Assembly: GCA_030638575.1 (NCBI GenBank)
Contig: DAOWEJ010000103.1
Span: 5,417-69,416 of the forward strand
Direction of reading: 5' to 3'
Length of the DNA: 64,000 nucleotides
Origin: Deltaproteobacteria bacterium
Lineage (GTDB): Bacteria; Desulfobacterota; Desulfobacteria; Desulfobacterales; JAUWMJ01
Shown: positions 3,941 through 63,308 of the stretch, one piece after another
Layout of the letters: each line of letters begins with the position of its first letter
How positions within the stretch are numbered: the stretch's first letter is position 1
Notes under the pieces: generated by a model
Database searches by the model: none
What the model was told of the DNA's origin: nothing
The model's input: only the letters and a program-made list of their open reading frames with translations
Program-made: the position numbers and the translations under genes

Positions 3941-4082
3941 GAGACCTTTGCAAAACGGCACTTTTTGCCCGATTTTTGCGTCAGGCTTAAATTTTAATCC
4001 TCGAAATATTCCATATATTCATGTGGTTGAAATTTTCGCCTTCCTTGAACTCGAACAAAAAAGACCATCTTTCAATGGGTTC
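3941..4082 (+). mobile_element. MITE-like repeat family A, copy A1 (right end degenerate)
   Basis: Starts GAGACCTTTGCAAAACGGCA and ends ...GACCATCTTTCAATGGGTTC. Flanked by the 5-bp direct repeat ACAGT (3936-3940 and 4083-4087). Abuts the stop codon of the DtxR-like gene. Confidence 0.85.
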
Positions 4083-4087
4083 ACAGT

Positions 4088-4846
4088 TTAAAGCAGTTGA
4101 ACCATAATTTTCGATGCCTCATCTTCGTTTAGGGAAAGATGGTAACCTCTAACCTTGATATCGATAGATCCGTTTTCAGGGGATATTTGTTCCATTTCAA
4201 TAATACTCCCTGGAGTTATATCCAGATCCGAAAGGCGTTTGTTGATACTTCCCTTTCCTTTAACCTTAATAAGTTTTGCCCTCTGGCCCGAATCGAGATC
4301 TTTAAGAATAACAGGGGATTGAGGCTTACCTGCAACCCTTTTTTTCCTCTTTTTCAAATCTTCCAGGCACATTGTTATCGATGTTCCACAATTTGGGAAA
4401 GTTGTGCCCTGATCGCAAAATTTGTTAAAACCCTTTATCCATTCATCTCCGCCACGCGGGCAAATTTCAACAAATTCGATAAAACGGATGATTTTCTCTA
4501 AAATGTTATTTGAAACAGCATGTTCCATTTTGCATGCAGATTCGTCAGCTTCTGCTTCATCAATGGAAAGGACCTTAATAAAAAATTCCCGTAAGACTTC
4601 ATGTCGCCTTACAACATCTTTAGCAAGCTCACTACCTTTTTTTGTCAGTGTAATCAGGTCGTAAGGTGCATAGTTGATGTAACCCTTTTCAGACAGGGCA
4701 CGTAGTGCACCGGTCACGGAAGAATTATTCACACCAAGGCGTTGTGCAATGTCTTTGGCTCTTGCAGCCTGCTTTTTTGCAGCAATGTGAAAGATTGCCT
4801 CAAGATAGTCTTCCATACTTGCGCTGATCATTTGGGCATTTTTCAT
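4088..4846 (-). CDS. DtxR/MntR-family metal-dependent repressor with C-terminal FeoA/SH3-like domain
   Basis: N-terminal winged HTH and dimerisation region (EDYLEAIF..., ARAKDIAQRLGVNNSSVTGALRALSEKGYI, RRHEVLREFF). The C-terminal ...GQRAKLIKVKGKG...RLSDLDITPGSIIEMEQ is FeoA-like. Confidence 0.85.
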   Translation of the reverse strand: MKNAQMISASMEDYLEAIFHIAAKKQAARAKDIAQRLGVNNSSVTGALRALSEKGYINYAPYDLITLTKKGSELAKDVVRRHEVLREFFIKVLSIDEAEADESACKMEHAVSNNILEKIIRFIEFVEICPRGGDEWIKGFNKFCDQGTTFPNCGTSITMCLEDLKKRKKRVAGKPQSPVILKDLDSGQRAKLIKVKGKGSINKRLSDLDITPGSIIEMEQISPENGSIDIKVRGYHLSLNEDEASKIMVQLL

Positions 4847-7951: not shown

Positions 7952-8287
7952 AAAGGAACATTCAGGAGATCCGGTTTTCAGGGCGGATACTTGGTTGAGC
8001 ATATTAGTGGGCGAGTTCGATACGGCGAGACCTTTGCAAAACGGCATTTTTCGAAGTCTTGCGCTTATCTGCCCGATTAGCGCTAAAGCTTCACTAAAGT
8101 GCCTGCGTCAGGCTCAAATTTCGGCACTTTAGTGAAGCTTTAGCGCTATCCTCGATCCGCCTGAGGCGGATCGCCTTCCTTGAACTCGAACCCCGGTTAA
8201 ATATAAAAAAGATTTAACAGGGCAGGCAAAAATTACCATTTTTCAAAGGTCTCACGGCTTAAAACCGGATCGTCTGAATGTTCCTTT
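7952..8287. repeat. Family E-like 30-nt inverted arms (7952-7981 / 8258-8287) enclosing MITE A2
   Basis: AAAGGAACATTCAGGAGATCCGGTTTTCAG versus the reverse complement of CTTAAAACCGGATCGTCTGAATGTTCCTTT, with 3 mismatches. Confidence 0.6.
8029..8253 (+). mobile_element. MITE-like repeat family A, copy A2 (long variant)
   Basis: Canonical ends GAGACCTTTGCAAAACGGCA...TACCATTTTTCAAAGGTCTC. 5-bp direct repeat ACGGC (8024-8028 and 8254-8258). The internal module carries a 25-bp perfect inverted repeat and a GATCCGCCTGAGGCGGATC hairpin. Confidence 0.9.
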
Positions 8288-10062: not shown

Positions 10063-11217
10063 ATGTCCGGCATTAGAAACGTATTAATGATGTTCTTTCT
10101 TTTAGGAGGGATGCTGTTGGGCTTGCCTTTTATAGGCATTATGCTGGCCGGATATCAGATTGCCAAATATTTTGATTTTCCTCCTAAAACTCAGTATGTG
10201 AGTCATGCACCTTTTTCGTGGATTGCTTTTACGGCACTCAGTCTTTTTGTTCTCGCTACGTTTGTTCCTATAATAATTAAAGGATTCAGGAGAGTGAAAC
10301 TTGTAAGAGACGGCTCAGTGACTAAATATTTTTTTCCATGGTGGGGGTGGGTTGGAGTTTTTACCGGAGCTGTTGCCTGGACATTTGCATGGACCCGTTT
10401 TCCATGGTTTGCCCAATTCCAGCCGCACACTTTTTTCCCATTGTGGTTTTCTTTTATCCTGGTAGTAAATGCGCTGTCATATCGGAAATCCGGGTATTGC
10501 ATGATAATCAATCGACCGGTATATTTCCTTTTGCTTTTCCCTGTAAGTGCCACGTTCTGGTGGTTCTTTGAATATTTAAACAGATTTGTTCAAAACTGGC
10601 ATTATGTGGGCGCTACTTTTGGCCCCTGGGAATATTTTTGGTATGCAACCCTTTCATTTTCAACTGTTCTTCCTGCGGTTTTAGGAGTTCGGGATCTTCT
10701 TCTCAACGCTTCATGGCTTGAAAAGGGTTTTGGAAATTTTATGCCTATCGAAGGATTTCAGTCTAAATTTCCGACCTTAACAGTCCTTGTACTGTCAGGG
10801 ATCGGACTCGTAGGGATCGGGGTTTGGCCTGACTATCTTTTTCTTCTCCTCTGGATTTCTCCTTTGCTTATCATCGTTTCAGTTATGTCTTTGTTCGGAG
10901 AAAGTAGCGTTCTGTCCGGCATTAAAAGGGGTGACTGGCGTGTTGTTATATCTTCATCACTGGCAGCATTTGTATGCGGATTCTTCTGGGAGATGTGGAA
11001 TTTTTATAGTCTGGCTAAATGGGTATACAGTGTTCCGTTTGTTCACCGATTCCAAATTTTTGAGATGCCGATACTTGGATATGCAGGATATTTCCCTTTT
11101 GGGTTGGAGTGTGCTGTAATTGGCGGGCTGCTTGAAGGGATAACAAAATCAAAGATTGACGGTCTCGTAAAAAGTCTCCCGCTTCAGTGCAGCGGGACGT
11201 TATGCTGCATTTCGTAA
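10063..11217 (+). CDS. Polytopic membrane protein of unknown function; last ~20 codons lie inside MITE B1
   Basis: About 10 hydrophobic segments rich in W/F (FWWFFEYLNRFVQNWHY). I recognised no family. The ORF runs 60 nt into repeat B1 before its stop. Confidence 0.6.
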   Translation: MSGIRNVLMMFFLLGGMLLGLPFIGIMLAGYQIAKYFDFPPKTQYVSHAPFSWIAFTALSLFVLATFVPIIIKGFRRVKLVRDGSVTKYFFPWWGWVGVFTGAVAWTFAWTRFPWFAQFQPHTFFPLWFSFILVVNALSYRKSGYCMIINRPVYFLLLFPVSATFWWFFEYLNRFVQNWHYVGATFGPWEYFWYATLSFSTVLPAVLGVRDLLLNASWLEKGFGNFMPIEGFQSKFPTLTVLVLSGIGLVGIGVWPDYLFLLLWISPLLIIVSVMSLFGESSVLSGIKRGDWRVVISSSLAAFVCGFFWEMWNFYSLAKWVYSVPFVHRFQIFEMPILGYAGYFPFGLECAVIGGLLEGITKSKIDGLVKSLPLQCSGTLCCIS

Positions 11218-11327
11218 TCATTCAGCGTACGAAAAGTACGATTCATGATTATCCCGCTTTAGCGGGACACGCCTTGAATTTGAACTTTTTACGAAACCGT
11301 CTAAATCGGACTTTTTACAAGATCATC
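11158..11327 (+). mobile_element. MITE-like repeat family B, copy B1
   Basis: Ends GACGGTCTCGTAAAAAGTC...GACTTTTTACAAGATCATC. Internal TCCCGCTTCAGTGCAGCGGGA and TCCCGCTTTAGCGGGA hairpins. Flanking direct repeat AAGATT (11152-11157 and 11328-11333). Confidence 0.85.
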
Positions 11328-11640
11328 AAGATTAGGATATAGAAAAAAGGATGCTTTTTGTGAGTTTATCATTTTAAAAATATAATACGCATCTTGTGTG
11401 CTAGGTAGTAGTGAGCACAATATGTTGTTGTTAAACAGTGTTTGTTCAAACCAGGGCATAATAAATAGGCAGATAGCCTGCGTAAGTTAATTTAAAAATA
11501 TTTTCGCAAAATGAATTATAGTTCTTTTTTTCTTTCCATCCTGTTGTATATGCTGTTTATATATGGTAATGGGAAAAGGTCTTTTCGTTAAATGTTGGAG
11601 TATTATATCCTTGCTGGCGCTTTAAAGAAAGAGGTAGGAA

Positions 11641-16282: not shown

Positions 16283-16642
16283 TTTTAAATATAATTTCAA
16301 ATCAAAGAACATAATACAAAAAATAGTGAAGATAATTATTAACCGTTTGTAATATGTATATTCAATATTCGTGCCAAAAGCATAAAAAATTTAATATATT
16401 GATTTATCAAATAGTTACGCCGTATGACTATTATAGTGGTTTTTCCGAGGGGACAAAAATCGTCACTTTATTGCCGTTAATTGTCATTTTATTGTCTCCA
16501 GGCGTATTTTCTTGCTACCTGTAGGTGTTTTTATTTAAAAAGGATACATATATGAATGCCGGTAAACAAAAAAGTTTGTCTCTGCAAACTTCTATCCTTC
16601 CATACGCCTGACCTCCAGGCTTTTCATTTGTTCCATGTAATC

Positions 16643-16978
16643 GAAGGGCCTGAGAGTTTCTCCTCAAAGATTTTTGGTGAATTGTTTGCATTTTAATGAT
16701 TGTAAGAGGTTCGTCCGGGGAAACGCCCATTAGCCCGTTCAAGCCTTAACAAATGGTTACAGTTCTTCGTACACGCCCCCTATCTTCTGCGTTAAGCCCA
16801 TACAGGCAGAGACGATCATCGCCGTCGAGGAAATCTGTCTATTGGGGCCGGCTCAAATCTAATCTCAGCGAGATAGCTGCCGTACGTCAGTTCCTCGATA
16901 TTATTGTTAAGGCTTGAACGGGCTAATGGGCGTTTCCCCGGACGAACAGAGAAGAGATTAAAAACTCCCCGACCTCTC
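16643..16978 (+). mobile_element. Element C, copy C1 (MITE-like with long inner stem and conserved core)
   Basis: Right TIR ...TCCCCGACCTCTC; the left TIR is degenerate. Direct repeats ATGTAATC/ATGTAATT at 16635-16642 and 16979-16986. A perfect 42-bp inverted repeat (16711-16752 / 16904-16945) encloses 151 nt. Confidence 0.8.
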
Positions 16979-17102
16979 ATGTAATTACTTCCTTGACATA
17001 TTAAAGATTGAGCAGATAAGTTCTATTGGTCCTAAAGAAAGTATGGGGTTTTGAAAAAGGTTCTAAGAAAACCGGGAATAAAATCTTTAAAGGAGGCTTT
17101 GT

Positions 17103-17879
17103 ATGAAGTATGAGGAGATTCTGTTTTCTACTGAAGAAGAAATAGCGTTTTTAACATTGAACAAGCCTGAAAAAATTAATGCTCTGTCAAGAAGAATGAT
17201 CAGGGAAATGATACATGCTTTAACCGCGGTTTCATCTGATGAATCTGTTAAAGTCGTCATTCTGAAAGCCACCGGCAAGCATTTTTGCGCCGGGCACTAT
17301 ATGAAAGAAATGGTTGATGATAATTTAAAGGAATATAAGTTTATTTTTGATCAATGTGCTAAGATGATGCAATTAATCCATGAAATTCCCCAACCTGTCA
17401 TAGCTCAGGTGCAGGGGGTTGCCACTGCCGCAGGCTGTCAGCTTGCTGCCTGGTGCGATCTTGTTGTGGCTGAGGAAGGCGCCCAGTTTGCCACACCCGG
17501 AGTCAAGATCGGTCTTTTTTGTACAACGCCCATGGTGGCAATCACCAGAGCTATCGGCAGAAAGGCGGCAATGGAAATGCTTTTGACCGGCCGCTATTTT
17601 TCAGCCCGGGAAGCGAAAGAACTGGGTCTGGTGAACAAGGTGGTATCTTCTGAAGATTTAGGTAAAGAAACCAGGAAAATGGCAGGCCACATCGCAGAGG
17701 CAAGCAGGTTCGTTTTAGCCATAGGTAAACAGGGGTTTTACGCTCAGGTTGACCAAGCGGATGAAAAAGCAATGCATTTTGCCAAACATACAATTACCAT
17801 GAACTTGATGGCCGAGGATGCTCAAAACGGTATAAAAGCCTTTATTAAAAAAGAGACGCCTCAATGGAAAAACAGGTAA
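17103..17879 (+). CDS. Enoyl-CoA hydratase/isomerase (crotonase) family protein
   Basis: FLTLNKPEKINAL...KVVILKATGKHFCAGH...GVATAAGCQLAAWCDLVVA is a typical crotonase fold signature. SD AAAGGAGG upstream. Confidence 0.85.
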   Translation: MKYEEILFSTEEEIAFLTLNKPEKINALSRRMIREMIHALTAVSSDESVKVVILKATGKHFCAGHYMKEMVDDNLKEYKFIFDQCAKMMQLIHEIPQPVIAQVQGVATAAGCQLAAWCDLVVAEEGAQFATPGVKIGLFCTTPMVAITRAIGRKAAMEMLLTGRYFSAREAKELGLVNKVVSSEDLGKETRKMAGHIAEASRFVLAIGKQGFYAQVDQADEKAMHFAKHTITMNLMAEDAQNGIKAFIKKETPQWKNR

Positions 17880-18071
17880 TTTTTTTCAATTAAACCACGG
17901 GCTATGCCCGAGCGACCCTAAAAAGTTTTACCGTTCCGGCGAGAATAAATATACTCAATAGTATCAAAAAGAGAAAGAACAATATTTTTGATTCCCTCTC
18001 CTAATAGCATGGTCGTAAAATTAAGAAATAAAATGTTTATGATAAGAGAATATTGAACGGCAGAGTAAAGC

Positions 18072-18098
18072 GTTTTTTGAACATCGAACATCGAACGT
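18072..18098 (-). terminator. Coordinates entered in error; the intended HNH-gene terminator is listed as the next feature
   Basis: This range falls inside repeat D1, not on the terminator hairpin. The minus-strand stem ACCACCCG-tagaa-CGGGTGGT plus TTTTAT was mis-indexed here. Correct coordinates are 18271-18298. Confidence 0.1.
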
Positions 18099-18197
18099 TG
18101 AACATCGAATGGTGAAATCGCTTCGCTCCGCCGGTTTATAAATTGGCAGAATACCTTATTCAAAATTCGACGTTGGACGTTCGATGTTCGACGTTCA
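18077..18197. repeat. Family D heptad-arm hairpin, copy D1 (empty)
   Basis: Left arm TTGAACATCGAACATCGAACGTTGAACATCGAA and right arm TTCGACGTTGGACGTTCGATGTTCGACGTTCA are imperfect complements built from 7-nt units. The centre is 56 bp. Confidence 0.7.
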
Positions 18198-18270
18198 TGA
18201 CGGCTACGTCCTTGATATTGGATTGTAATCTGCAGGAATAGCGATGCTTTTAGACCCCTTCGAGGGGTCT

Positions 18271-18298
18271 TCATAAAACCACCCGTTCTACGGGTGGT
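18271..18298 (-). terminator. Intrinsic terminator downstream of the HNH gene
   Basis: Minus strand: ACCACCCG-TAGAA-CGGGTGGT (18298-18278) followed by TTTTATGA. A second hairpin, GACCCCTCGAAGGGGTC, follows. Confidence 0.7.
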
Positions 18299-18341
18299 AG
18301 ATGATTTTTTATCAAAAGGCCAAAATATTGTTACTATACAC

Positions 18342-18638
18342 CTAAACTTTAATCTTGTCTTTTAAGTATTCATCCCATTCCATGGGAAGGAGTTGCTTTT
18401 TTCTTGTGTTGCATTCTTTGCAGGCAGGGACAACATTACCCTTTATGCTCCGGCCCCCGCGTGCCACCGGAACTATATGGTCCATAGTTAGTTCTTTTGG
18501 GGGTGTTGGGCGTCCGCAGTAATGGCACACGCCTTTTGCAAGGCGTCGTTTCCACCACTGGGACTTTCTTAGTTCCCTTGCTTTGTGGCGTTCCCTTTTT
18601 ATATCCGCCTCATCCGGATCAAATGCAAAAGGTTTCAT
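18342..18638 (-). CDS. Small HNH endonuclease-domain protein
   Basis: CHYCG...DHIVPVARGG...NVVPACKECNTRK is an HNH/zinc-finger core; 98 aa. Confidence 0.85.
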   Translation of the reverse strand: MKPFAFDPDEADIKRERHKARELRKSQWWKRRLAKGVCHYCGRPTPPKELTMDHIVPVARGGRSIKGNVVPACKECNTRKKQLLPMEWDEYLKDKIKV

Positions 18639-22407: not shown

Positions 22408-22602
22408 GATGGTTTCGTAAAAAGTCAGATTTAGACGGTTTCGTAAAAAGTTCAAATTCCCCCGCTAAAAAGCAACGGGATAAAAAGGCGTGTCCCGCTA
22501 AAGCGGGATAATCACAAGAAGTACTTATCGTACGTTGAATGATTGCGAAATGCAGCACAACGTCCCGCTGCACTGAAGCGGGAGACTTTTTACGAGATCG
22601 TC
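22408..22602 (-). mobile_element. MITE-like repeat family B, copy B2
   Basis: GATGGTTTCGTAAAAAGTC...GACTTTTTACGAGATCGTC, inverted relative to B1. Flanking direct repeat AATATTT (22401-22407 and 22603-22609). Confidence 0.85.
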
Positions 22603-22675
22603 AATATTTGCCTGGCTTGTTACACTGCTTTTAATTGTTATGCAAGAATTTATGAACTGGAAATACAGGTGAAAT

Positions 22676-24117: not shown

Positions 24118-24462
24118 ATGAAAAAGAAACAGGTAGATATAGACTGGGAGAACAGGAGGCTGTGCATCGATGGGAACTGTATTGGAGTGATCGGCCCTGA
24201 CGGGCGCTGCAAGGAATGCGGAAAACCTTATGAAGGCGAACTGCCGGAAGAAATCACAAAGACACAAACCGGCCTTGACGAAGACACAGTGTCAAAAGAA
24301 GACTCTGATAAATTCAAGAAAGACGAAGTTAATGATGAAGAAAAAACCTCAGTGAATATAGACTGGGAGAATCGCACACTATGCAGCGACGGGAACTGTA
24401 TAGGGGTGATCGGCCCTGATGGGCGCTGCAAGGAATGCGGAAAACTCCTTGAAAGCGGGTAA
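24118..24462 (+). CDS. Small protein with two tandem copies of a 4-Cys module
   Basis: IDWENRRLCIDGNCIGVIGPDGRCKECGKP and IDWENRTLCSDGNCIGVIGPDGRCKECGKL are separated by an acidic linker. The DNA of the two modules is highly similar. Confidence 0.65.
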   Translation: MKKKQVDIDWENRRLCIDGNCIGVIGPDGRCKECGKPYEGELPEEITKTQTGLDEDTVSKEDSDKFKKDEVNDEEKTSVNIDWENRTLCSDGNCIGVIGPDGRCKECGKLLESG

Positions 24463-28468: not shown

Positions 28469-28486
28469 AGTTACACCCTTTATTTT

Positions 28487-28681
28487 GACGTTCTCGTAAA
28501 AAGTCTCCCGCTTCAGTGCAGCGGGACGTTGTGCTGCATTTCGCAATCATTCAAAATACGATAAGTACTTCTTGTGATTATCCCGCTTTAGCGGGACACG
28601 CCTTTTTATCCCGTTGCTTTTTAGCGGGGGAATTTGAACTTTTTACGAAACCGTCTAAATCAGACTTTTTACGAGTTCATC
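28487..28681 (+). mobile_element. MITE-like repeat family B, copy B3
   Basis: GACGTTCTCGTAAAAAGTC...GACTTTTTACGAGTTCATC. Flanks are TTATTT(T)/TTATTT. Begins 19 nt upstream of the cNMP/CBS gene start. Confidence 0.85.
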
Positions 28682-28702: not shown

Positions 28703-28854
28703 GAGACCTTTGAAAAATGCCCAGTTTTGTTCAAGTTCAAGGAAGGCGATCCGCCTCAGGCGGATTAACCACAGGTCCGCCTGAGGCGGATCGAGGATTA
28801 CAATTTGAGCCTGACACAGAAATTGGGCAAAAGGGGGTGTTTTGCAAAGGTCTC
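28703..28854 (-). mobile_element. MITE-like repeat family A, copy A3 (inverted, double-hairpin variant)
   Basis: GAGACCTTTGAAAAATG...TTTTGCAAAGGTCTC. 5-bp direct repeat TAAAC (28698-28702 and 28855-28859). Carries two GATCCGCCTSAGGCGGA hairpins. Confidence 0.9.
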
Positions 28855-28936
28855 TAAACCTGATGGATATGACTGTCGATAAATTCATCATGTATACAGT
28901 ATAAGAAAAAAAAGTTTTTGTGTCAAATTTTCGCCA

Positions 28937-37251: not shown

Positions 37252-37426
37252 GAGCCAATTTCAAAACGTCCCCTTTTGTCCGATATCTGCGTCAGGTTCA
37301 AATTTTGGCACACAGTGAAGCTTTAGCGCTATCCTCGATCCGCCTCAGGCGGACCTGTGGTTAATCCGCCTGCGGCGGATCGCCTTCCTTGATCTTGAAC
37401 AAAATTGAACATTTTGAAACCGCCTC
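37252..37426 (+). mobile_element. MITE-like repeat family A, copy A4 (degenerate ends)
   Basis: GAGCCAATTTCAAAACG...ATTTTGAAACCGCCTC aligns to the family A termini. Internal double GATCCGCC hairpin module. The flanking AACT repeat is only partial. Confidence 0.7.
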
Positions 37427-37460
37427 AACTATTTGAAGTTTTCATCAAGAAGGAGGATAC

Positions 37461-38025: not shown

Positions 38026-38184
38026 GAGACCTTTGCAAAACGGCACTTTTCGAAGTCTGCGCTTATCTGCCCGATTTCTGCGTCAGGCTCAAATTTCAAT
38101 CCTCGAAATATTAAATATATTCCTGTGGTTGAAATTTTCGCCTTTTTTGAACTCGAACAAAAATTACCATTTTTCAAAGGTCTC
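38026..38184 (+). mobile_element. MITE-like repeat family A, copy A5
   Basis: Canonical termini. 5-bp direct repeat TCCTT (38021-38025 and 38185-38189). Confidence 0.9.
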
Positions 38185-38264
38185 TCCTTTAAAGGCAAGC
38201 CCTTTGTATAAGAATATTTATTGGCTTTTTGTGAGTCAACATGATTATTACAGCAAGGAGATAA

Positions 38265-44339: not shown

Positions 44340-44523
44340 GATGGCGTCGTGAAAAATTTCATCTACTGCGTTGTAGCGGTTTTTCAGGAACTCGACATAC
44401 TATATATGTATAGTCTCGTCCCTGAAAAACCGCTATGCCTTTTTATCCCGCTGATTTTTAGCGGGGGTATATGAGCCTTTTTATTTAGCCATCCGGCCCT
44501 TATAGACTTTTTACGATACCGTC
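44340..44523 (+). mobile_element. MITE-like repeat family B, copy B5 (divergent interior)
   Basis: GATGGCGTCGTGAAAAATTTC...GACTTTTTACGATACCGTC. The internal hairpin is TAGCGGTTTTTCAGG...CCTGAAAAACCGCTA. No clean flanking duplication. Confidence 0.65.
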
Positions 44524-44621
44524 AAAATTGATACGATATCAAATTAAAAACATCAATATATATCTCTTATATACGGTATAGCAACTCTTTTGTAACCTGA
44601 ACTGAATTTGGAGCAGATGAT

Positions 44622-46520: not shown

Positions 46521-46715
46521 TCAAGTCCTCCTAAAATGTATTTTATTAAAATAGACAGGCTATGATATGAAATTGTCTGATGTAATATCCTAAAATAAAA
46601 TAATTTGTAAAGAGATATATTCTTTTTGGATAAGTTGATACATAAAGTTCTTTATGTTAAGTCACTCATAGGTTGATTGATATGGCATTGAAATTTCCTG
46701 TATAAAGGAGATAAG

Positions 46716-49277: not shown

Positions 49278-49453
49278 CGCTTTTTACGAGTCCATCAATA
49301 TTTGATAATCTCGTAAAAGTCTGATTTAGACGGTTTCGTAAAAAGTTCAAATTCAAGGCGTGCAAATTTTGTAATCATGAGGCGTACTGATCGTACGTTG
49401 AATGATTACGAAATGCAGCACAACGCAGAAGTTGGACTTTTTACGGAATCGTC
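49278..49453 (-). mobile_element. MITE-like repeat family B, copy B4 (49304-49453) preceded by a solo B terminus (49278-49296)
   Basis: GATAATCTCGTAAAAGTC...GACTTTTTACGGAATCGTC is flanked by AATATTT on both sides. An extra CTTTTTACGAGTCCATC lies immediately to the left. Confidence 0.8.
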
Positions 49454-49475
49454 AATATTTCAGAGAGGTTAATTA

Positions 49476-57444: not shown

Positions 57445-57969
57445 GTGAATGGTGAGAAATCACAGAGCATTACATGGAAAAAACGCGTGATTCGGTCGTT
57501 TATTTTTCCCTTTTTAGTACTGCTGATTTACGGGGTCCTTTTTGCTGTTATGCCTGAGAAAGCAATTGCAGCATTTAGTAGCAGCGAAAGGGTTTTACTT
57601 AACATAATTGTACCCCTTGGTTTTGTTTTCATCCTTTTGGTGGTTTTTAATATTTTTTTAAAGCCGGTAAATATCATAAAGTTTTTAGGAAAAGAATCCG
57701 GTATTAAGGGAATGGTGCTTTCTTCGGCAGCGGGGATCGTTTCTGTGGGGCCAGTTTATGCCTGGTATCCTTTGCTAAAGGAACTTCGGGAAAAAGGGGC
57801 AATGAACTTTCTTATTGCTGTTTTTATAAACAGCAGGGCTGTAAAGCCTTTTCTTTTGCCTGTGATGATTTCATATTTTGGTTTAAAATATGTGATAATA
57901 CTGACAATCTTTACCATCGCAGGATCATTTGTTGCCGGGTACTTTACCGGCGCTCTTACCAAAGATTAA
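57445..57969 (+). CDS. Permease second half (partner of the preceding gene)
   Basis: 174 aa with 4-5 TM helices. GTG start 6 nt after the upstream stop. Confidence 0.55.
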   Translation: MNGEKSQSITWKKRVIRSFIFPFLVLLIYGVLFAVMPEKAIAAFSSSERVLLNIIVPLGFVFILLVVFNIFLKPVNIIKFLGKESGIKGMVLSSAAGIVSVGPVYAWYPLLKELREKGAMNFLIAVFINSRAVKPFLLPVMISYFGLKYVIILTIFTIAGSFVAGYFTGALTKD

Positions 57970-57981
57970 CAAATTTTTTAA

Positions 57982-58256
57982 CTACTCAGGTTCACAGTTC
58001 AAGGGTTCACGGTTCAAGGTTGAAAAGAGATGAAGATTGAACGATTTGAAGACATTGAGGCTTGGCAACTGGCGCGCGAGTTGACACAAAAAGTGTACAG
58101 ACTGACGAAGAGTACATATCTTCCGGCGAATTTAAAGATACATATGAGCTGGCCAGACGAACCCGTGCTGTTGTTCGTGAATTCATCAACTATCTCAAAA
58201 AATATGAAGAGCACAAAGCAACTAACCGTGAACCGTGAACCCTGAACCTGAGTAGT
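57982..58256. mobile_element. Family D heptad-arm hairpin, copy D4 (occupied by a gene remnant)
   Basis: ACTACTCAGGTTCACAGTTCAAGGGTTCACGGTTCAAGG ... AACCGTGAACCGTGAACCCTGAACCTGAGTAGT. The outermost 10 nt are perfectly complementary. Confidence 0.75.
58030..58242 (+). pseudogene. Decayed four-helix-bundle protein gene (23S rRNA intervening-sequence protein family)
   Basis: MKIERFEDIEAWQLARELTQKVYRLT matches the family N-terminus. The family-like C-terminus EYISSGEFKDTYELARRTRAVVREFINYLKKYEE is in the -1 frame. The middle ~50 aa are missing. Confidence 0.7.
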
Positions 58257-58268
58257 TGCCAAACTTGA

Positions 58269-59789
58269 CTACTTCTTATTAAAGTACTGCACAATCGCTT
58301 TGCACAACCCTGGTATTGTGAAAAATTCTGCAGTGATATGAACCTCAAAACCCAATTTCCGGGCTGTTTCTGAAGTTATGGGACCGATACTCGCAATGGT
58401 AACGCCTTGCAAAAGGGTTTTGAAGTTTTCGGAGGGCAAAAGCTCTTTGAAATTTTTTACCGTGGATGAACTCGTAAATGTTATAAGATCTATTTTTTTT
58501 TCTTCAAGTTGTTTTAAAATCAGATCAGCGTTATCGCGAACCTTTTCGGTACAGTATGCGGTAATTTCATCAACATCGGCCCCCATTTTTTTAAGCTCAA
58601 CAGGAAGAACCGGTCTTGCTTCCCGGGCTCGGGGGAGGAGTATTTTTTTTCCGTTTATATCTTCTTTTTCAAAAGCCTGAGCAACAGATTCAGCTCTGTA
58701 GCTTTCAGGGATAATATCGCTGTTTAACCCGAAATCTAAAAGTTTTCTTGCAGTGGCAGGGCCTATGGTTACTGTTTGTATATTGTGCAAAACTCGTACA
58801 TCCATACCTTTTGCAAAAAGCCTTTCAAAGAAGAATTTTACACCGTTTACACTTGTAAAGATCAGCCAGTCATAGGCATGAAGGTTTTCGATTGCCGAGT
58901 CAAGGGGCTTAAAGTCATCCGGTGGCTGCACATTAATGGTTGGGCATTCCAGACACTCGGCGCCAAGATCGGAGAGGAGCTTTACAAGGTCGCTCGCCTG
59001 TTCACGAGCCCTGGTTATCACGACTTTTTTCCCAAACAACGGCCGGTTCTCAAACCATTTCATTTTTTGCCTGAGTTTAACGACATCGCCGACAACAATT
59101 ATCGCCGGCGCTTTCAGTCCGGCTTTGTTTATAATGCTTACAATCGTTTCAAGTGTTCCTGTGACAGTAACCTGTCTGGATGTTGTTCCCCAACGCACTA
59201 CCGCTACCGGAGTTTTTGGAGACTTGCCATGGTGGATAAGCTGACGGGTAATATGTGGCAGGTTTTTTACACCCATAAGAAAAACAAGGGTGCCTATACC
59301 CTTTGATATGGATGCCCAGTCAATACCGGATTGGGTTTTTTCGGGATCTTCATGGCCTGTAATAAAGGCAAGGGTGGATGTGAATTTTCTATGGGTTAGG
59401 GGTATTCCGGCATAAGCCGGAGCTGCAATTGCAGAAGTTACTCCGGGAACGATTTCGAACTCAATATTATTATCTATAAGTACTTGTGCTTCTTCTCCAC
59501 CCCGCCCGAAGATAAAGGGGTCCCCTCCTTTTAGCCGTGCGACCGTAGCCCCTGATTTCGCTTTTTCAACCAAAAGTTTGTTTATCCTGTCTTGAGACAG
59601 GGTGTGGTCCCCTCCTTTTTTCCCGACATAGATTATCTGTGCTTTTTTGGAGGCTTGTTTCAAAAGGGACGGGGATGCAAGGTAATCATAAATAATAACA
59701 TCAGCTATGCCTATGCATTCCAGCCCCTTTACGGTTATCAGCCCCGGGTCACCGGGTCCTGCGCCGATTAAATAAACTTTACCAGTCAT
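58269..59789 (-). CDS. cobA-hemD: Fused uroporphyrinogen-III C-methyltransferase / uroporphyrinogen-III synthase
   Basis: SUMT N-terminus (VYLIGAGPGDPGLITVKG, GGDPFIFGRGGEE) followed by a HemD-like C-terminal half. Confidence 0.9.
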   Translation of the reverse strand: MTGKVYLIGAGPGDPGLITVKGLECIGIADVIIYDYLASPSLLKQASKKAQIIYVGKKGGDHTLSQDRINKLLVEKAKSGATVARLKGGDPFIFGRGGEEAQVLIDNNIEFEIVPGVTSAIAAPAYAGIPLTHRKFTSTLAFITGHEDPEKTQSGIDWASISKGIGTLVFLMGVKNLPHITRQLIHHGKSPKTPVAVVRWGTTSRQVTVTGTLETIVSIINKAGLKAPAIIVVGDVVKLRQKMKWFENRPLFGKKVVITRAREQASDLVKLLSDLGAECLECPTINVQPPDDFKPLDSAIENLHAYDWLIFTSVNGVKFFFERLFAKGMDVRVLHNIQTVTIGPATARKLLDFGLNSDIIPESYRAESVAQAFEKEDINGKKILLPRAREARPVLPVELKKMGADVDEITAYCTEKVRDNADLILKQLEEKKIDLITFTSSSTVKNFKELLPSENFKTLLQGVTIASIGPITSETARKLGFEVHITAEFFTIPGLCKAIVQYFNKK

Positions 59790-59811
59790 TTTTTATAAAA
59801 TACCTGCTTGT

Positions 59812-59905
59812 AACATTTTAGCTATTTTAAAAGCCGTATTAAGTTGATCCGGTTTTAAACAGCCCCCGTCTTAAAACCGAATTACCTGAATGCTTATTTT
59901 AGTAT
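59812..59905 (+). repeat. Family E palindromic repeat, copy E4
   Basis: AACATTTTAGCTATTTTAAAAGCCGTATTAAGTTGATCCGGTTTTAAAC...CTTAAAACCGAATTACCTGAATGCTTATTTTAG. Confidence 0.5.
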
Positions 59906-59929
59906 ATCTTACAATAGGCTAAATTAATT

Positions 59930-60268
59930 GAGGGGTCGGGGAGTTTCTCCACTAAAGCCTTTTTGATAAACCGTTAGCGCTTTACTGATTGAGACCGGTC
60001 CGTCCGAGGAATAAGCCAATAGCCCGTGCAAGCCTTAACAAATGAGAATAGTACTCTGTACACGCCCCCTATCTTTTGCGCGAAGCCGATACAGGCAGAG
60101 ACGATCATCGCCGCCGTGAGAATCAGTCTACTGGGGCTGACTCAAATCTAATCTCAGCGAGATAGCTGCCGTACAAAAGTTCCCATATAATATTGTTAAT
60201 GTTTGCACGGGCTATGGGCTTATTTCTCGGGCGGACAGAATAGAGATTGAAAAATTCCCCGACCCCTC
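59930..60268 (+). mobile_element. Element C, copy C2
   Basis: TIR GAGGGGTCGGGGAGTTT.../...AATTCCCCGACCCCTC. 8-bp direct repeat AATTAATT (59922-59929 and 60269-60276). Inner stem 60000-60041 / 60193-60234. The core is homologous to C1. Confidence 0.85.
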
Positions 60269-60270
60269 AA

Positions 60271-61203
60271 TTAATTACCTGATTTAAGTTTTTTCAATAT
60301 TTCATCTGCGCCCATTGAAAGAAGTCGCTGTGCAAGCTGCACTCCGATTTTTTCCGATAACGCTTCGGATCCTGAACAGGTATCCTTAACAATGGTTTTT
60401 CCGTCTATATCTGCAACAAGTCCACATAGTGTGTAATTATTATCTTTTATTTCTCCATGTGCTGCAACAGGTATCTGACAACTTCCTTCCAGGTGATGTA
60501 AAAATGCACGTTCACCCATAACGATCGACCGTGTTTCCGGGTGATTCAGGCCTGAGACGATTTCATCAATTTCAGGGTCATTTTCTCTGATTTCAATACA
60601 CAGAGCGCCCTGACCGACTGCCGGGAGCATAATATCATAATCAAGATACTCGGTTATCCTGTTTTCGAGATTAAGGCGTTTTACACCTGCTGCAGCCAGA
60701 ACGATAGCATCCATATTGCCTGTTTCAAGTTTTTTAATGCGAGTGTTAAGATTCCCCCTTAAAGGGAGTATAACACAGTCCGGCTTTACATGGCGAAGCT
60801 GTGCGGCACGCCTTAAGCTGCTGGTGCCTATACGCGCCGAGGGGCCAAGCTCAGAGAGCCCAAGTCCTTTTTTTGAAATGAGAACATCCGAAGGAATTTC
60901 CCGCTCCGGTACCGGCCCGATGCACAAACCGTCAGGCAGGTCGGCGGGCATGTCTTTCATACTGTGAACGGCAAGATCGATGCGCCGATCCAAAAGTGCT
61001 TCTTCTATCTCTTTTACAAAAAGCCCTTTTCCTCCGACTTTAGCCAGGGGGACATCAAGGATTTTATCTCCTTTTGTCTTTATGACAACGATTTCAATGG
61101 AAAGGGAGGGGTGTATTCTTCTTAAGTTTGATTTAGTCCAGTTTGCCTGCCAGAGAGCGAGCTTGCTCCCTCTTGTTCCGATTCGGATATTGGATTTGCC
61201 CAT
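60271..61203 (-). CDS. hemC: Hydroxymethylbilane synthase (porphobilinogen deaminase)
   Basis: IRIGTRGSKLALWQA...KGLFVKEIE...HSMKD...RGN..TR are HemC signatures. Confidence 0.95.
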   Translation of the reverse strand: MGKSNIRIGTRGSKLALWQANWTKSNLRRIHPSLSIEIVVIKTKGDKILDVPLAKVGGKGLFVKEIEEALLDRRIDLAVHSMKDMPADLPDGLCIGPVPEREIPSDVLISKKGLGLSELGPSARIGTSSLRRAAQLRHVKPDCVILPLRGNLNTRIKKLETGNMDAIVLAAAGVKRLNLENRITEYLDYDIMLPAVGQGALCIEIRENDPEIDEIVSGLNHPETRSIVMGERAFLHHLEGSCQIPVAAHGEIKDNNYTLCGLVADIDGKTIVKDTCSGSEALSEKIGVQLAQRLLSMGADEILKKLKSGN

Positions 61204-61433
61204 CAGTGGCTACAGCTTGAACAACTGGTTGCCGAACACCCGTTGCAGGATGATGAAGAAGCGGATGAGGAAACCGTTTCTCCGCTGCTCCCCTTACTGA
61301 CAAAGCCGCACGCAGACATCATTCGTAATACTTTTTTACTGCTGCATGATGGACAATCCGGCTTTTCAGATCCAAAGACAAGGTATTCAAAGTCATTATT
61401 GCAGTTTTCACAATGATATTCATAAATCGGCAT
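61203..61433 (-). CDS. FmdB-family zinc-ribbon protein
   Basis: MPIYEYHCENC...CPSC with a Ser/Cys-rich tail. TGATG overlap with the hemC start. Confidence 0.8.
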   Translation of the reverse strand: MPIYEYHCENCNNDFEYLVFGSEKPDCPSCSSKKVLRMMSACGFVSKGSSGETVSSSASSSSCNGCSATSCSSCSH

Positions 61434-61535
61434 TTTGATAACTCCTTATAATTTTGCCGCTATGGGGATGCTTTATAATTCCTTATGATATAGATTTAAT
61501 AAACATGAATAACCTATACGTCAAGTATGATGATA

Positions 61536-62483
61536 TTATTTTAGCTTTTCTATTATCCCGGCAGCAATAAGTGGGAGCATGATTTCATGGTGGCCTACAA
61601 GATTAAAACCCTGACCGCCTTTGGATGTGGGTCTGTTAACAACATTGGTCATGGGGCGGTAGTGCTTAATAAAATCCATATTAACGGTAGTGAAGTTTTC
61701 CAGGGTGTGGCCTAAATTCCTGACAATTGTTATTGCCTTTAAAAAAACTTCAGGGAGTATAACTGCAGAGCCGACATTTAAGTAAACCCCGCCTTCAAGT
61801 GTGGATGTGACGGACGCGAGGGTTCGAAAATCCCTGTGGGTCGCTCCACCTGCTTCTTTTGGATCAAAACCGGGGTGCATGTGAATGATGTCTGTTCCCA
61901 TGGCAACGTGTATTGTGACGGGAATATCCAGATTTACGCCTGCAGCTAAAATGCTTTTGTCCTTTATGGGCAGATTCTGATCGATTATTGACTGTCCGAC
62001 GGCTTCCCCCATGCCAATTGATTCGCGGCCTGCTTTTTTTATGGCATCACTTAAAAAAATACCGGTTTCATGGGACATTCCGAATGAACCGTTTCCGATG
62101 GAGGCTGCAACATCTTCCGATGTCCGGCCGGTCATGGCGACTTCGAGATCGTGGATAATACCGGCGCCGTTCATGGCAACGGCGGTGATAATTTTACGTT
62201 TCATAAGATCTATTACAACAGGATTCAATCCCACTTTTATAACGTGCGCACCCATGCCGAATAGAACGGTTTTTTTATTCTGAAAGGCGGTTACAATAGA
62301 AGATATGACAGCTTTTAAGTCTTTACCGGCAAGTATGTCGGGAAGCGAGTCGATAAAGTCTGAAAAACTGCATCCTTTGCTTGAAGTTTTGGCAAAATCA
62401 GCCGTACTCACCTTGCTCTTTCTTTTTGAAACAGGGTATGTTTTCAGGCGGCTTAGATCTATGGGTTTAAATTTATGCGGCAT
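61536..62483 (-). CDS. Deoxyhypusine-synthase-like protein
   Basis: GMGAHVIKVGLNPVVIDLM...AMNGAGIIHDLE...HVAMGTDIIH is DHS-like in my reading. Start set at ATG 62483, because the track's 53 upstream codons are a translation of MITE A6. Confidence 0.5.
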   Translation of the reverse strand: MPHKFKPIDLSRLKTYPVSKRKSKVSTADFAKTSSKGCSFSDFIDSLPDILAGKDLKAVISSIVTAFQNKKTVLFGMGAHVIKVGLNPVVIDLMKRKIITAVAMNGAGIIHDLEVAMTGRTSEDVAASIGNGSFGMSHETGIFLSDAIKKAGRESIGMGEAVGQSIIDQNLPIKDKSILAAGVNLDIPVTIHVAMGTDIIHMHPGFDPKEAGGATHRDFRTLASVTSTLEGGVYLNVGSAVILPEVFLKAITIVRNLGHTLENFTTVNMDFIKHYRPMTNVVNRPTSKGGQGFNLVGHHEIMLPLIAAGIIEKLK

Positions 62484-62495
62484 GGCTGCTTTCAA

Positions 62496-62637
62496 GAGAC
62501 CTTTGCAAAACGGCACTTTTTGTCCGATTTCTGCGTCAGGCTCAAATTTTAATCCTCGAAATACTCCATGTATTCCTGTGGTTAAAATTTTCGCCTTCCT
62601 TGAACTCGAACAAAAATTACCATTTTTCAAAGGTCTC
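62496..62637 (+). mobile_element. MITE-like repeat family A, copy A6
   Basis: Canonical termini. 5-bp direct repeat TTCAA (62491-62495 and 62638-62642). Lies 13 nt upstream of the DHS-like start. Confidence 0.9.
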
Positions 62638-62723
62638 TTCAATTCCTACTAAATTTTTTTAATGTATCCTTTTGCGAAACAGGCAAAAAGGAGTATTCAG
62701 ATGATCCGGCTTTATCTGAAGAT

Positions 62724-63308
62724 TTAAAGTGCTGCAAACTCTTCCGGGAACAAAATACGGTCAACAAGATCGCATAAAATATGTCCCAGCGTAATATGGG
62801 TCTCTTGAATTCTTGCCGTTGTATCAGACTCAACCGACAATACCAGGTCGGCGCACGAGGCCAGTGTGCCACCTCGACCTGTCATGCCGATAGTAAAGAT
62901 TCCGGTTTTTTTTGCAGTATCTATCGCTTTTATAATATTTTTTGAATTTCCGCTGGTGCTGATTCCTATGGCTATATCGTCTTTATTGCCTATGGCTGTT
63001 ATTTGCTTGGAAAATATTTCGTCAAAATTATAATCGTTTCCAATGCTTGTTATTATAGATGTGTCCGTAGTCAAGGCGATGGCAGCAAGGGGTGGGCGTT
63101 CAATTTCAAAGCGGTTTACAAATTCCGCTGCAATGTGCTGGGCATCGGCAGCGCTGCCTCCGTTGCCGAAAATAAGAACTTTATGGCCGGAAGTAATACA
63201 CCCGGCAATCATATCAGCACCTTTGACAAGGAGGTCAATATTTCTTTTTACGCAGTTGCTCTTAACATCAATACTTTCTTTAAGTATATTTAAAATGGCC
63301 TCTTTCAT
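62724..63308 (-). CDS. gmhA: SIS-domain phosphoheptose isomerase (GmhA/DiaA-like)
   Basis: FGNGGSAADAQHIAAEF...ISTSGNSKNI...TG. Start set at MKEAILN (ATG 63308), directly after the upstream TPR gene stop. Confidence 0.85.
   Translation of the reverse strand: MKEAILNILKESIDVKSNCVKRNIDLLVKGADMIAGCITSGHKVLIFGNGGSAADAQHIAAEFVNRFEIERPPLAAIALTTDTSIITSIGNDYNFDEIFSKQITAIGNKDDIAIGISTSGNSKNIIKAIDTAKKTGIFTIGMTGRGGTLASCADLVLSVESDTTARIQETHITLGHILCDLVDRILFPEEFAAL

Follow-up and report, generated by a model that had tools for sequence, protein, structure and literature searches.

Loops enclosed by close inverted repeats are known to flip-flop in chloroplast small inversions, and inverted-repeat-mediated rearrangement is known from E. 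coli. Mobile elements of the IS200/IS605 and REP/RAYT types have neither terminal inverted repeats (TIRs) nor a target-site duplication (TSD), and carry subterminal hairpins that are recognised by a Y1 transposase, while Correia elements (CREE) of Neisseria end in 26-bp TIRs and duplicate a TA target. CREE are hairpin-forming repeats that are cut by RNase III once transcribed and that contain functional DNA sites (PMC10969869), and a passage of the same paper, citing Elbeyioglu et al. 2017, reports that they invert in situ. Chunjie, of Geobacter uraniireducens, is a further bacterial MITE (PMC10969869). Element C, the subject of the present analysis, is a member of a large MITE family, and holds within its termini a pair of inverted arms whose enclosed segment occurs in both orientations.

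Two copies of Element C lie in the window (the whole 64,000-nucleotide stretch of DNA analysed), at 16643-16978 (copy 1) and 59930-60268 (copy 2) on the same strand, with 77% identity over 300 ungapped nucleotides (~80% by blastn), and the repeat pair goes well beyond what chance would produce. Direct reading and alignment uphold most of the anatomy proposed in the preliminary description (Table 1), namely two copies in the same orientation, TIRs of which the left end of copy 1 is decayed (4/13 mismatches there), and flanking direct repeats that differ between the copies as a footprint of transposition, these being 8-bp TSDs in both cases. The inner repeat of copy 1, described as a perfect 42-bp repeat around 151 nt, is perfect and does enclose 151 nt, but is 44 bp long; the homologous stem of copy 2 is 89% complementary, and the compensated arm differences quoted for it are present. 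The core, here delimited to 117 nt, was likewise correctly singled out as the best-conserved part, and the copies adjoin housekeeping genes, among which no RT, TnpB/IscB or IS110-type gene occurs. Comparison of the ORFs agrees with the earlier statement that none is common to both copies: 54-aa ORFs run over the core of copy 1 on both strands (16753-16917 on the plus and 16816-16980 on the minus strand), the core region of copy 2 has no ORF of at least 50 aa, and across six frames the best frame is open in only 32/114 listed copies, with no 3-nt periodicity.

Table 1. Features of the two copies of Element C in the window.
Feature	Position	Strand	Remark
Copy 1 left TSD, ATGTAATC	16635..16642	.	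read directly; 7/8 match to 16979-16986
Copy 1 left TIR, decayed, GAAGGGCCTGAGA	16643..16655	+	4/13 mismatches vs family TIR GAGGGGTCGGGGA
Copy 1 long-side outer arm	16656..16708	+	one-sided segment, makes element asymmetric
Copy 1 left inner inverted-repeat arm, 44 bp	16709..16752	+	100% complementary to 16904-16947
Copy 1 central invertible segment, 151 nt	16753..16903	+	inversion seen in relatives, not in window
Copy 1 core, 117 nt, GTACACGCCCCC...GCTGCCGTAC	16769-16885	+	conserved part of central segment
Copy 1 right inner inverted-repeat arm, 44 bp	16904..16947	-	partner of 16709-16752
Copy 1 short-side outer arm	16948..16965	+	
Copy 1 right TIR, TCCCCGACCTCTC	16966..16978	-	1 mismatch in 14
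Copy 1 right TSD, ATGTAATT	16979..16986	.	read directly
Copy 2 left TSD, AATTAATT	59922..59929	.	identical to 60269-60276
Copy 2 left TIR, GAGGGGTCGGGGA	59930..59942	+	read directly
Copy 2 long-side outer arm	59943..59997	+	orientation class A
Copy 2 left inner inverted-repeat arm	59998..60041	+	89% complementary to 60193-60236
Copy 2 central invertible segment, 151 nt	60042..60192	+	conserved core 60058-60174
Copy 2 right inner inverted-repeat arm	60193..60236	-	partner of 59998-60041
Copy 2 short-side outer arm	60237..60255	+	
Copy 2 right TIR, TCCCCGACCCCTC	60256..60268	-	read directly
Copy 2 right TSD, AATTAATT	60269..60276	.	overlaps hemC stop codon (60271-60273, minus strand)

Copy 2 is located within the hemC-hemD operon, between hemC and cobA/hemD, where its TSD regenerates the hemC stop codon and the operon is not disrupted. 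We note that the element in this way puts a 44-bp hairpin into operons such as hemC-hemD, and that it also marks assembly breakpoints.

Beyond the window, the family comprises more than 125 further copies in Desulfobacterales-type MAGs (4 copies in 2 MAGs) and in sediment metagenomes (at least 120 loci, all listed ones being true copies), with at least 131 core matches in at least 125 sequences. These copies were collected by exact patterns inside the core, which inflates core conservation at those 19-22 positions. Among the listed copies, the element has a median length of 326 bp (range 314-342). The family TIRs, 13-17 bp long (GAGGGGTCGGGGAG / CTCCCCGACCCCTC) and present in the window copies, are both identifiable in 52 unique copies among the matches listed, and in 40 of these 52 an 8-bp TSD matches at 6 or more of its 8 positions (17 perfect, 14 at 7/8 and 9 at 6/8), as compared to 0-4 and mostly 1-3 matches for displaced control 8-mers, with one control exception at 7/8. 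The target is an AT-rich, intergenic 8-mer with the consensus AAWTAWTT, and insertions are found in every intergenic type among the listed loci, with no orientation bias relative to neighbouring genes (between same-strand genes, 12 listed copies are co-oriented and 24 anti-oriented). Furthermore, an orthologous site that is empty in the window (46521-46715) is filled in locus L126, with the TSD AAATATTT. Because of these TIRs, TSDs, dispersed copies and the empty and filled states of one orthologous site, Element C can be assigned to a large family of MITEs; together with the lack of coding capacity, the same observations support the earlier proposal of a non-autonomous mobile element. As judged from the ends of the copies, the combination of TIRs with an 8-bp TSD is the signature of staggered-cut DDE-type transposition, with the enzyme probably supplied in trans.

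An autonomous element sharing the TIR, for which the preliminary description had suggested a search, was found neither in the window, nor in 1.24 Mb of loci, nor beside orphan ends. Clustering of ORFs of at least 200 aa over the same 1.24 Mb gave no multi-copy transposase candidate, and Pfam identified no transposase or recombinase in any of the 30 window ORFs or in the flanking genes. The annotated plasmids and viral contigs searched gave no match to the family, and an exact-protein look-up for within-species polymorphism led back to the source metagenome alone, at 100% identity. In the literature, we found no paper on MITEs in these taxa and none joining a MITE with an inverton, while core and TIR sequence strings matched unrelated aptamer papers only.

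The inner arms have a median length of 42 bp across the listed copies. Within any one copy they have a median complementarity of 97% and are perfect in 25/110 listed copies, whereas from copy to copy their median identity is 62% (listed copies), and subfamilies carry different arm sequences that are each still complementary. The compensated stem noticed in the two window copies thus holds family-wide, with complementarity being kept while the arm sequence turns over. The arm ends are conserved and the middles variable (outer end GTCCGNCCGGGG, inner end AGCCKTAACAA; arm-end motifs GTCCGGGGAA and AGCCGTAACAA), and one motif recurs both in the termini (as GTCGGGGAG) and at each arm's outer end (as GTCCGGGGAA). 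Mismatches between the arms show no strand-specific G.U excess (54 plus-strand wobble, 41 minus-strand wobble and 69 transversion types).

The central segment lies in either of two orientations with respect to the asymmetric outer arms, with 37 A and 13 B copies among those listed (48 A and 19 B by a broader signature), and contig L118 carries one copy of each. For 16/19 B copies, the nearest relative among the matches listed is an A copy, and this implies many independent flips. Loci L098 and L124 are the same insertion, with collinear flanks that are 89-92% identical: the outer and inner arms are collinear, and the central ~145 bp is inverted, with the breakpoints at the inner arm ends. This in-situ inversion is seen in one orthologous pair, and the difference lies between related genomes rather than inside one population. 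Where flanks are at least 99% identical, all 11 orthologous pairs agree in orientation, and flips first appear at ~8% flank divergence, indicating that switching is slow, as expected for rare spontaneous recombination; we note also that the 48:19 ratio departs from the 1:1 expected under free neutral flipping. Two further candidate inversions, L089/L111 and L119/L121, were dropped, as only one flank matched in each, probably through a neighbouring repeat. As flipped copies of the enclosed segment occur, one of them at an orthologous locus, recombination or conversion between the arms at the DNA level appears to account better for the compensated stem.

The preliminary description had proposed a payload of another kind, a structured RNA or ssDNA-hairpin module, and in its fullest form the RNA reading would make Element C a MITE carrying a structured non-coding RNA, acting in cis or in trans (a regulatory RNA, a ribozyme or a guide-like RNA, for example), in which the 42-bp stem closes a folded RNA of ~150 nt. 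The predicted folds are very stable, with folding energies far below those of shuffled sequences (z about -8 to -10), but these low energies are due to the long stem. Core conservation that exceeds that of the termini, the family-wide compensation of the arms, and the position of copy 2 inside the hemC-hemD operon, where it is probably transcribed, would all be in line with an RNA. In the plus-strand consensus, weak pairings (GGCAG/CUGCC and CCGCC/GGGG) score above column shuffles (-8.5 vs -1.1 +/- 1.5 kcal/mol), and wobble pairs are retained where C has changed to U opposite the invariant GGGG run.

Against this, the core matches no known family in the Rfam comparison that had been proposed: the whole window gave no hits at gathering score, and the three divergent copies searched (copy 1, copy 2 and L129) gave chance-level hits or none at E<=5 / E<=10. 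For its 153 nt, the centre has a very weak consensus fold, at -8.49 kcal/mol on the plus strand (RNAalifold, covariation term -0.7) and -4.24 kcal/mol on the minus strand (covariation term 0), with double changes in 2/14 predicted pairs, 5 cells in all. Exhaustive enumeration of helices kept only G/pyrimidine runs above 5 pairs, none of them covarying on either strand, the helices that did emerge are short and made of invariant G/C runs, the strand signals of candidate helices contradict each other, and mutual information across the centre is dominated by subfamily signal and not by helices. The power of this covariation test is limited by the exact-pattern collection of copies, which hides compensatory changes opposite the 19-22 pattern positions. 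The arm mismatches, as noted above, have no RNA strand signature, the centre lies in both orientations relative both to the rest of the element and to genes, neither a sigma-70-like promoter nor an intrinsic terminator is found inside the elements, and the resident copy of the orthologous pair decays at close to a neutral rate. The structured-RNA proposal is thus not borne out, with no Rfam match, covarying helix or strand signature, and we regard such an RNA as unlikely. A tRNA or tmRNA origin, raised by a T-loop-like GGTTCAAATC, was also discarded, with ARAGORN finding no gene in the window and the putative T-stem not being complementary.

The two orientations of the centre raise a second alternative, in which the arms would be sites for a dedicated site-specific recombinase encoded elsewhere, and the centre a phase-variable regulatory cassette (a promoter or an enhancer) spread by transposition, making Element C an inverton carried on a MITE. 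In its favour, the two existing orientations show no correlation with the phylogeny of the copies, one flip took place in situ, the arms are conserved at their ends and variable in the middle, and biased switching could account for the A:B ratio. In-situ inversion of Correia elements, as reported in the passage of PMC10969869 that cites Elbeyioglu et al. 2017, offers a precedent. However, no sigma-70 promoter consensus occurs inside either copy. A putative sigma-54 promoter on the minus strand (CGGCAGC-N4-TCGCT) was rejected, as the -12 GC of this GG-N10-GC match is broken in ~14% of copies and the pattern is expected by chance. Moreover, no recombinase or invertase is found by the copies, among the 30 window ORFs or as a recurrent neighbour in the at least 120 loci listed, the 11/11 concordant pairs point to slow flipping, and neither the position nor the orientation of the copies shows a preference with respect to genes. 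Taking both sides into account, we give a programmed switch of this kind only a small chance. The same low expectation applies to a more specific version, in which the centre and the 42-bp arms would form a self-contained transposon-borne DNA switch, with a trans-acting recombinase or transposase recognising the arm ends and the core, flipping the cassette, and so toggling mobility or the expression of neighbouring genes. Were that so, it would be a mobile inverton present in dozens of copies per genome in marine sulfate reducers.

The architecture of the subfamilies bears on a third alternative, namely that arms and core make up a distinct foldback module, bounded by 42-bp terminal repeats of its own and lodged in an unrelated small MITE shell from which its mobility comes. 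In 8 listed copies, the same arms and core are surrounded by a second shell with different ends (ATATTCATTAGAAACAAACAGTCG... and ATAAATTTTCATGCCCGACTGGGCAC...), the long-side outer arm is wholly different from subfamily to subfamily, and shell-only mini elements occur at L063:7153-7243 and L096:1833-1959. The mini element at L096 keeps a remnant of one arm and so has the look of a deletion derivative rather than an empty shell. Furthermore, no target duplication surrounds the inner arms (copy 1 has just AGAG/AGAG, and copy 2 none), the short sides of types 1 and 2 are homologous to each other, and arms plus core were found outside a shell at none of the at least 125 loci listed. A nested element is, in our judgment, quite improbable.

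A fourth alternative starts from the hairpin itself, which, with its conserved apical region, would work as folded single-stranded DNA or as an extruded cruciform, providing a priming or nicking site in transposition or replication, with flip-flop arising from hairpin resolution. At parvovirus termini, hairpin transfer yields flip and flop of the loop relative to the stem, and the flipping of the Element C centre may resemble this, by analogy only. Near-perfect arms are kept without an RNA signature, palindrome-collapse derivatives exist, and the centre has a weak dyad symmetry (self-reverse-complement score 87 vs 54 +/- 12.6 in shuffles), but this symmetry is marginal, with 1/300 shuffles scoring higher. 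The TIRs and 8-bp TSDs instead indicate double-strand cut-and-paste or copy-paste DDE chemistry rather than HUH or single-stranded DNA chemistry, and no HUH, Rep, TnpA(Y1), RAYT or TnpB gene is found near the copies. We therefore consider a single-stranded or cruciform module very unlikely, and identity with an HUH-type hairpin element of the IS200/IS605 or REP/RAYT kind is contradicted by the TIRs, the 8-bp TSD and the lack of a nearby Y1, RAYT or TnpB gene.

What sets the core apart is its conservation across deeply diverged subfamilies, which is greater than that of the termini and includes near-invariant blocks outside the pattern positions family-wide (ACACGCCCCCTATC, TGGGGCTGG and CCGTAC); AGGCAGAGACGAT and GATAGCTGCCGTAC are further core blocks. 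Mini derivatives that have lost the core are rare among the listed loci and have no clear TSDs, in keeping with a core selected for propagation. At the L098/L124 insertion, by comparison, the central segment without ascertained bases is 75% identical, the outer arms are 75-79% identical and the flanks ~90%: in this pair, the same one in which the in-situ inversion is seen, the core decays like neutral sequence.

The reading that we find somewhat more convincing than not is that of a foldback-type MITE with arms that undergo recombination or conversion and with a core that serves propagation as a cis-acting DNA module. From the termini inwards, the element consists of asymmetric outer arms, an inverted repeat of ~42 bp and, between its arms, a central segment of ~150 bp. 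The inner arms would recombine or convert with each other on DNA, an exchange that would keep them near-perfectly complementary as their sequence drifts and would now and then flip the centre. The core would then be a DNA module rather than a folded RNA or a gene, probably comprising sites at which the mobilising transposase or an accessory protein binds, although both the enzyme and the binding are hypothetical. Its conservation could be maintained if only copies with an intact core go on to make new copies, while resident copies decay, and the motif common to the termini and the outer ends of the arms would fit repeated subterminal binding sites. Counting against a cis-acting module is the puzzle of what use a transposase would have for ~117 bp of internal sequence conserved above the level of the termini.

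MITEs are common elements whose hairpin-forming repeats are frequently misread as structured RNAs; Element C shows a route by which inverted-arm exchange at the DNA level can lead to a "compensated stem". The family is abundant in Desulfobacterales-type genomes of marine sediments, and is unusual in that the core stands above the termini in conservation, the arms evolve in concert and the centre has flipped many times. If the core proves to be a binding module for a transposase or accessory protein, it would specify what an uncharacterised family of transposons with 8-bp TSDs requires in cis, and if the flipping is driven by an enzyme, the element would be a mobile phase-variation cassette.

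Compared with bacterial MITEs such as Chunjie, Element C is likewise small and non-coding, with TIRs, direct-repeat TSDs and AT-rich targets, occurs in many intergenic copies and truncated derivatives, and is tolerated inside an operon (here, copy 2). Unlike them, it contains an inner inverted repeat of 42 bp, and its core is conserved above the termini, which is unusual for a MITE; it also has no sequence similarity to the annotated elements searched and no cognate IS found. With CREE it shares inversion in place by a MITE, hairpin-forming repeats and an internal conserved or functional sequence. However, CREE have an IHF site and sigma-70 promoters, whereas Element C has neither consensus (IHF, 1 hit in 104 listed copies), its TSD is 8 bp at AAWTAWTT, its TIR sequence is another, and its inversion involves the inner repeat and not the termini. 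Identity with a Correia-type MITE is contradicted by the 8-bp TSD, the different TIRs and the absence of the IHF consensus.

Invertons, the phase-variable promoters driven by invertases, also have a short segment that is enclosed by inverted repeats and occurs at one locus in either orientation, but Element C has no promoter and no nearby or recurrent recombinase, it flips slowly, on the scale of species divergence, and its copies are dispersed by transposition. The mechanistic parallel extends to the flip-flop of hairpin loops, where intramolecular recombination or template switching inverts the spacer that two close inverted repeats enclose, with concerted evolution of the arms; those cases, however, are incidental and at ordinary loci, whereas Element C is mobile and its spacer is strongly conserved family-wide.

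The preliminary description of Element C, a repeat of approximately 336-339 bp present twice in the window, holds for the shared orientation of the two copies (77% identity ungapped over 300 nt, and ~80% by blastn), as well as for the core being the most conserved part of the element and for the lack of any ORF common to both copies. The ends of copy 2 read GAGGGGTCGGGGA / TCCCCGACCCCTC, the left terminus of copy 1 is decayed (GAAGGGCCTGAGA), and each copy is flanked by directly repeated 8-mers (copy 1, ATGTAATC/ATGTAATT; copy 2, AATTAATT/AATTAATT). The inner inverted repeat of copy 1 is indeed perfect, and encloses the 151 nt originally reported, with its length corrected from 42 to 44 bp. 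Both arms have 8 additional nt in the window copies compared with the MAG copies, and the central segment of both window copies is type A (one of two orientations, A and B, relative to the asymmetric outer arms).

Positions of Element C, its relatives and other repeats (window coordinates, except for the L loci, which are fetched relatives)
Feature	Position	Remarks
Copy 1	16643-16978	same orientation as copy 2
Copy 2	59930-60268	same orientation as copy 1
Inner inverted repeat, copy 1	16709-16752 / 16904-16947	44 bp, perfect; encloses 151 nt
Inner inverted repeat, copy 2	59998-60041 / 60193-60236	44 bp, 89% complementary; encloses 151 nt
Core, 117 nt	16769-16885 (copy 1); 60058-60174 (copy 2)	best-conserved portion of the element
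Second subfamily of Element C	L155:10150-10650, L097, L154, L096:7500-8000, L167, L166, L069, L062	
Second palindromic family	3941-4089, 8027-8253, 28703-28855, 37314-37433, 38026-38191, 62491-62644	
Pieces related to the 200-nt repeats	11150-11334, 44437-44530, 49315-49460	

The genes surrounding both copies are ordinary, encoding a GAF/HD-domain protein, an enoyl-CoA hydratase, a small HNH protein and an SLT-LysM protein around copy 1, and hemC and a cobA/hemD fusion around copy 2. The latter copy lies inside the minus-strand hemC-cobA/hemD pair, with the hemC stop codon TAA (60271-60273) falling within its right target duplication (60269-60276), such that the end of the hemC reading frame is preserved by the insertion; the 44-bp hairpin is presumably carried into the operon transcript. 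We note that an independent copy (L118:3574-3838, a CAJHXW01 contig) occupies the same neighborhood as window 16643-18638 at a different site, with the HNH gene on one side and the 3' end of the hydratase gene on the other; the window copy is upstream of the hydratase gene.

Several other repeats were observed in the window. A second, unrelated palindromic family of ~140-150 bp with ends GAGACCTTTG...CAAAGGTCTC (for example 62496-62637, with 41-nt arms that are 83% complementary) is probably another MITE. Two 200-nt repeats in inverted orientation (22408-22607 and 28482-28681, 96% complementary and 5.9 kb apart) hold tandem 26-nt units such as GACTTTTTACGAGATCGTCAATATTT and flank radical-SAM, DisA-type DAC and cNMP/CBS/DUF294 genes; these may be either a third family of repeats or an invertible region. 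A palindrome at 18078-18197, built of GAACATC/GAACGTT heptamers, has 39-nt arms that are 85% complementary and separated by 42 nt; it is situated within an ORF without a Pfam match, between the enoyl-CoA hydratase and HNH genes. A 102-nt direct repeat (24137-24238 / 24356-24457, 84% identical, 219 nt apart) lies inside a 114-aa ORF (24118-24462), likewise without a Pfam match.

An exact core 19-mer retrieved four true copies, contained in two MAGs (labelled delta proteobacterium and Desulfobacterales), along with 45 chance matches, and a gapped core pattern retrieved at least 120 metagenome loci, with true copies in all 120 listed. Many of these loci originate from the MAG-like assembly CAJHXW01, which is syntenic with parts of the window. 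In total, at least 131 core matches in 125 sequences were obtained, yielding 114 distinct central segments. Most incidental second copies in the same loci carry the search pattern too, the sole full copy without it being L050:3842-3992. Separately, window 57771-63000 is 100% identical to the ENA metagenome scaffold_1072 (ERZ23498442, ZHAN22-2, SAMN18200495), which makes this sample its probable origin.

These relatives bear out and much extend the original reading of a mobile element. Of the 52 copies with both termini identifiable, 17 have a target duplication matching at 8/8 positions, 14 one matching at 7/8 and 9 one matching at 6/8, compared to 0-4 matches in outward-displaced control 8-mers, save one control at 7/8; targets have the consensus AAWTAWTT, and elements a median length of 326 bp. 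Furthermore, the intergenic region 46521-46715 of the window is an empty site, the ortholog of which (L126:9483-10026) is filled with a type B copy with TSD AAATATTT, inserted ~20 bp upstream of the next gene's ribosome-binding site. Insertions occur in intergenic regions of all three types (convergent, divergent and tandem), and family copies show no coding signal. Truncated copies are also seen in the family, as are solo ends and two mini derivatives without a core. Both of the latter (L063:7153-7243, 91 bp, and L096:1833-1959, 127 bp) keep their termini with no clear TSD, and in the L096 derivative a remnant of one arm is left, which would fit a collapse of the palindrome. The search for an autonomous element sharing the termini, as suggested in the preliminary description, found no transposase in the window, in the surroundings of orphan ends or among recurrent proteins in 1.24 Mb of loci. 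The mobilizing enzyme is presumably of the DDE type, to which the 8-bp staggered duplication points. Judged at the sequence level, the family has all the properties of a MITE except for an identified parent IS.

The compensation noted within the stem is strongly upheld across 110 copies (median arm length 42 bp), in which the arms are 97% complementary within a copy (perfect in 25/110) and the identity of a given arm between copies is only 62%. Arm interiors are unrelated between whole subfamilies yet still pair, as in the GC-rich arms of L095, L129 and L147. The preliminary description proposed a structured RNA or ssDNA-hairpin module; an RNA payload is not supported. The arm mismatches in the 110 copies (54 plus-strand wobble, 41 minus-strand wobble, 69 transversion) lack an RNA strand signature, and three divergent copies gave no Rfam match at either curated thresholds or E<=5. 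The RNAalifold consensus of the 153-nt central alignment is -8.49 kcal/mol on the plus strand (covariation -0.7) and -4.24 on the minus strand (covariation 0), with column shuffles at about -1; the few predicted pairs either do not vary or vary in just one partner, and mutual information mirrors subfamily structure. Exhaustive helix enumeration yields only 4-5-bp helices of G runs and pyrimidines, and transitions favor opposite strands in different candidate helices, as expected without any helix. No sigma-70 promoter, terminator or IHF consensus is present inside the elements, and a sigma-54-like spacing match was rejected, as it is not conserved at the positions where this is needed. The core is not recognizable as an RNA, gene, promoter or IHF site. 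Exchange between the arms, by recombination or conversion, would produce both inversions and concerted arm evolution, with no need for RNA.

Taking the asymmetry of the outer arms (~55 nt from terminus to arm on one side, ~19 nt on the other) as a compass, the orientation of the center splits 37 vs 13 with a strict probe, and into 48 A, 19 B, 14 symmetric and 19 unclassified copies with a broader signature. This biased 48:19 ratio merits attention, as does the conservation of the core. One A and one B copy share a single contig (L118), and for 16/19 B copies the most similar central sequence belongs to an A copy, so the center flipped independently many times. The most direct evidence of flipping is the pair L098 and L124, the same insertion in related genomes with collinear flanks of 89-92% identity, where termini, outer arms and inner arms are collinear and only the ~145 bp between the arms is inverted, the breakpoints being TTAACAA| and |TTGTTAA. 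Where flank identity is 99% or more, orthologous pairs agree in orientation in 11/11 cases, and of two pairs at ~92% flank identity, one is the same and one inverted, such that flipping looks slow, on the scale of species divergence. A second subfamily, with the same arms and core and other outer ends (short side ATATTCATTAGAAACAAACAGTCG..., long side ATAAATTTTCATGCCCGACTGGGCAC...), shows both core orientations, in four copies each.

Family-wide, the core blocks ACACGCCCCCTATC, A.AGGCAGAGACGAT, TGGGGCTGG and GATAGCTGCCGTA vary in <10% of copies, compared with variation at 30-60% of positions in the outer arms and arm interiors; 19-22 core positions were fixed by the search patterns, and several further core blocks are near-invariant without having been so selected. 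Between L098 and L124, identity is 75% for the central segment (ascertained bases excluded), vs 75-79% for the outer arms and ~90% for the flanking genes, and the ACACGCCCCCTATC block is damaged in both copies. Resident copies thus appear to decay, based on this one informative orthologous pair, and core conservation would be upheld among lineages that keep transposing. The core would then be required in cis for propagation, most simply as putative protein-binding DNA; this is the weakest link of the explanation, as it draws on a single pair and a hypothetical protein. Direct reading of the sequences shows a motif common to the terminus (GTCGGGGAG) and each arm's outer end (GTCCGGGGAA), which would fit multiple putative subterminal binding sites.

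Our literature search found no paper that combines MITE and inverton terms or gives these sequences. The behavior of the family resembles that of Correia elements, for which in situ inversion, internal protein-binding sites and RNase III-sensitive hairpins have been reported (review PMC10969869). However, with its 8-bp TSD, different termini and lack of an IHF site, the Element C family is not a member of that group. It also shares the geometry of invertons, but without a detectable promoter, a detectable recombinase or any sign of rapid switching. The Element C family is a foldback-type MITE with a flippable, strongly conserved center.
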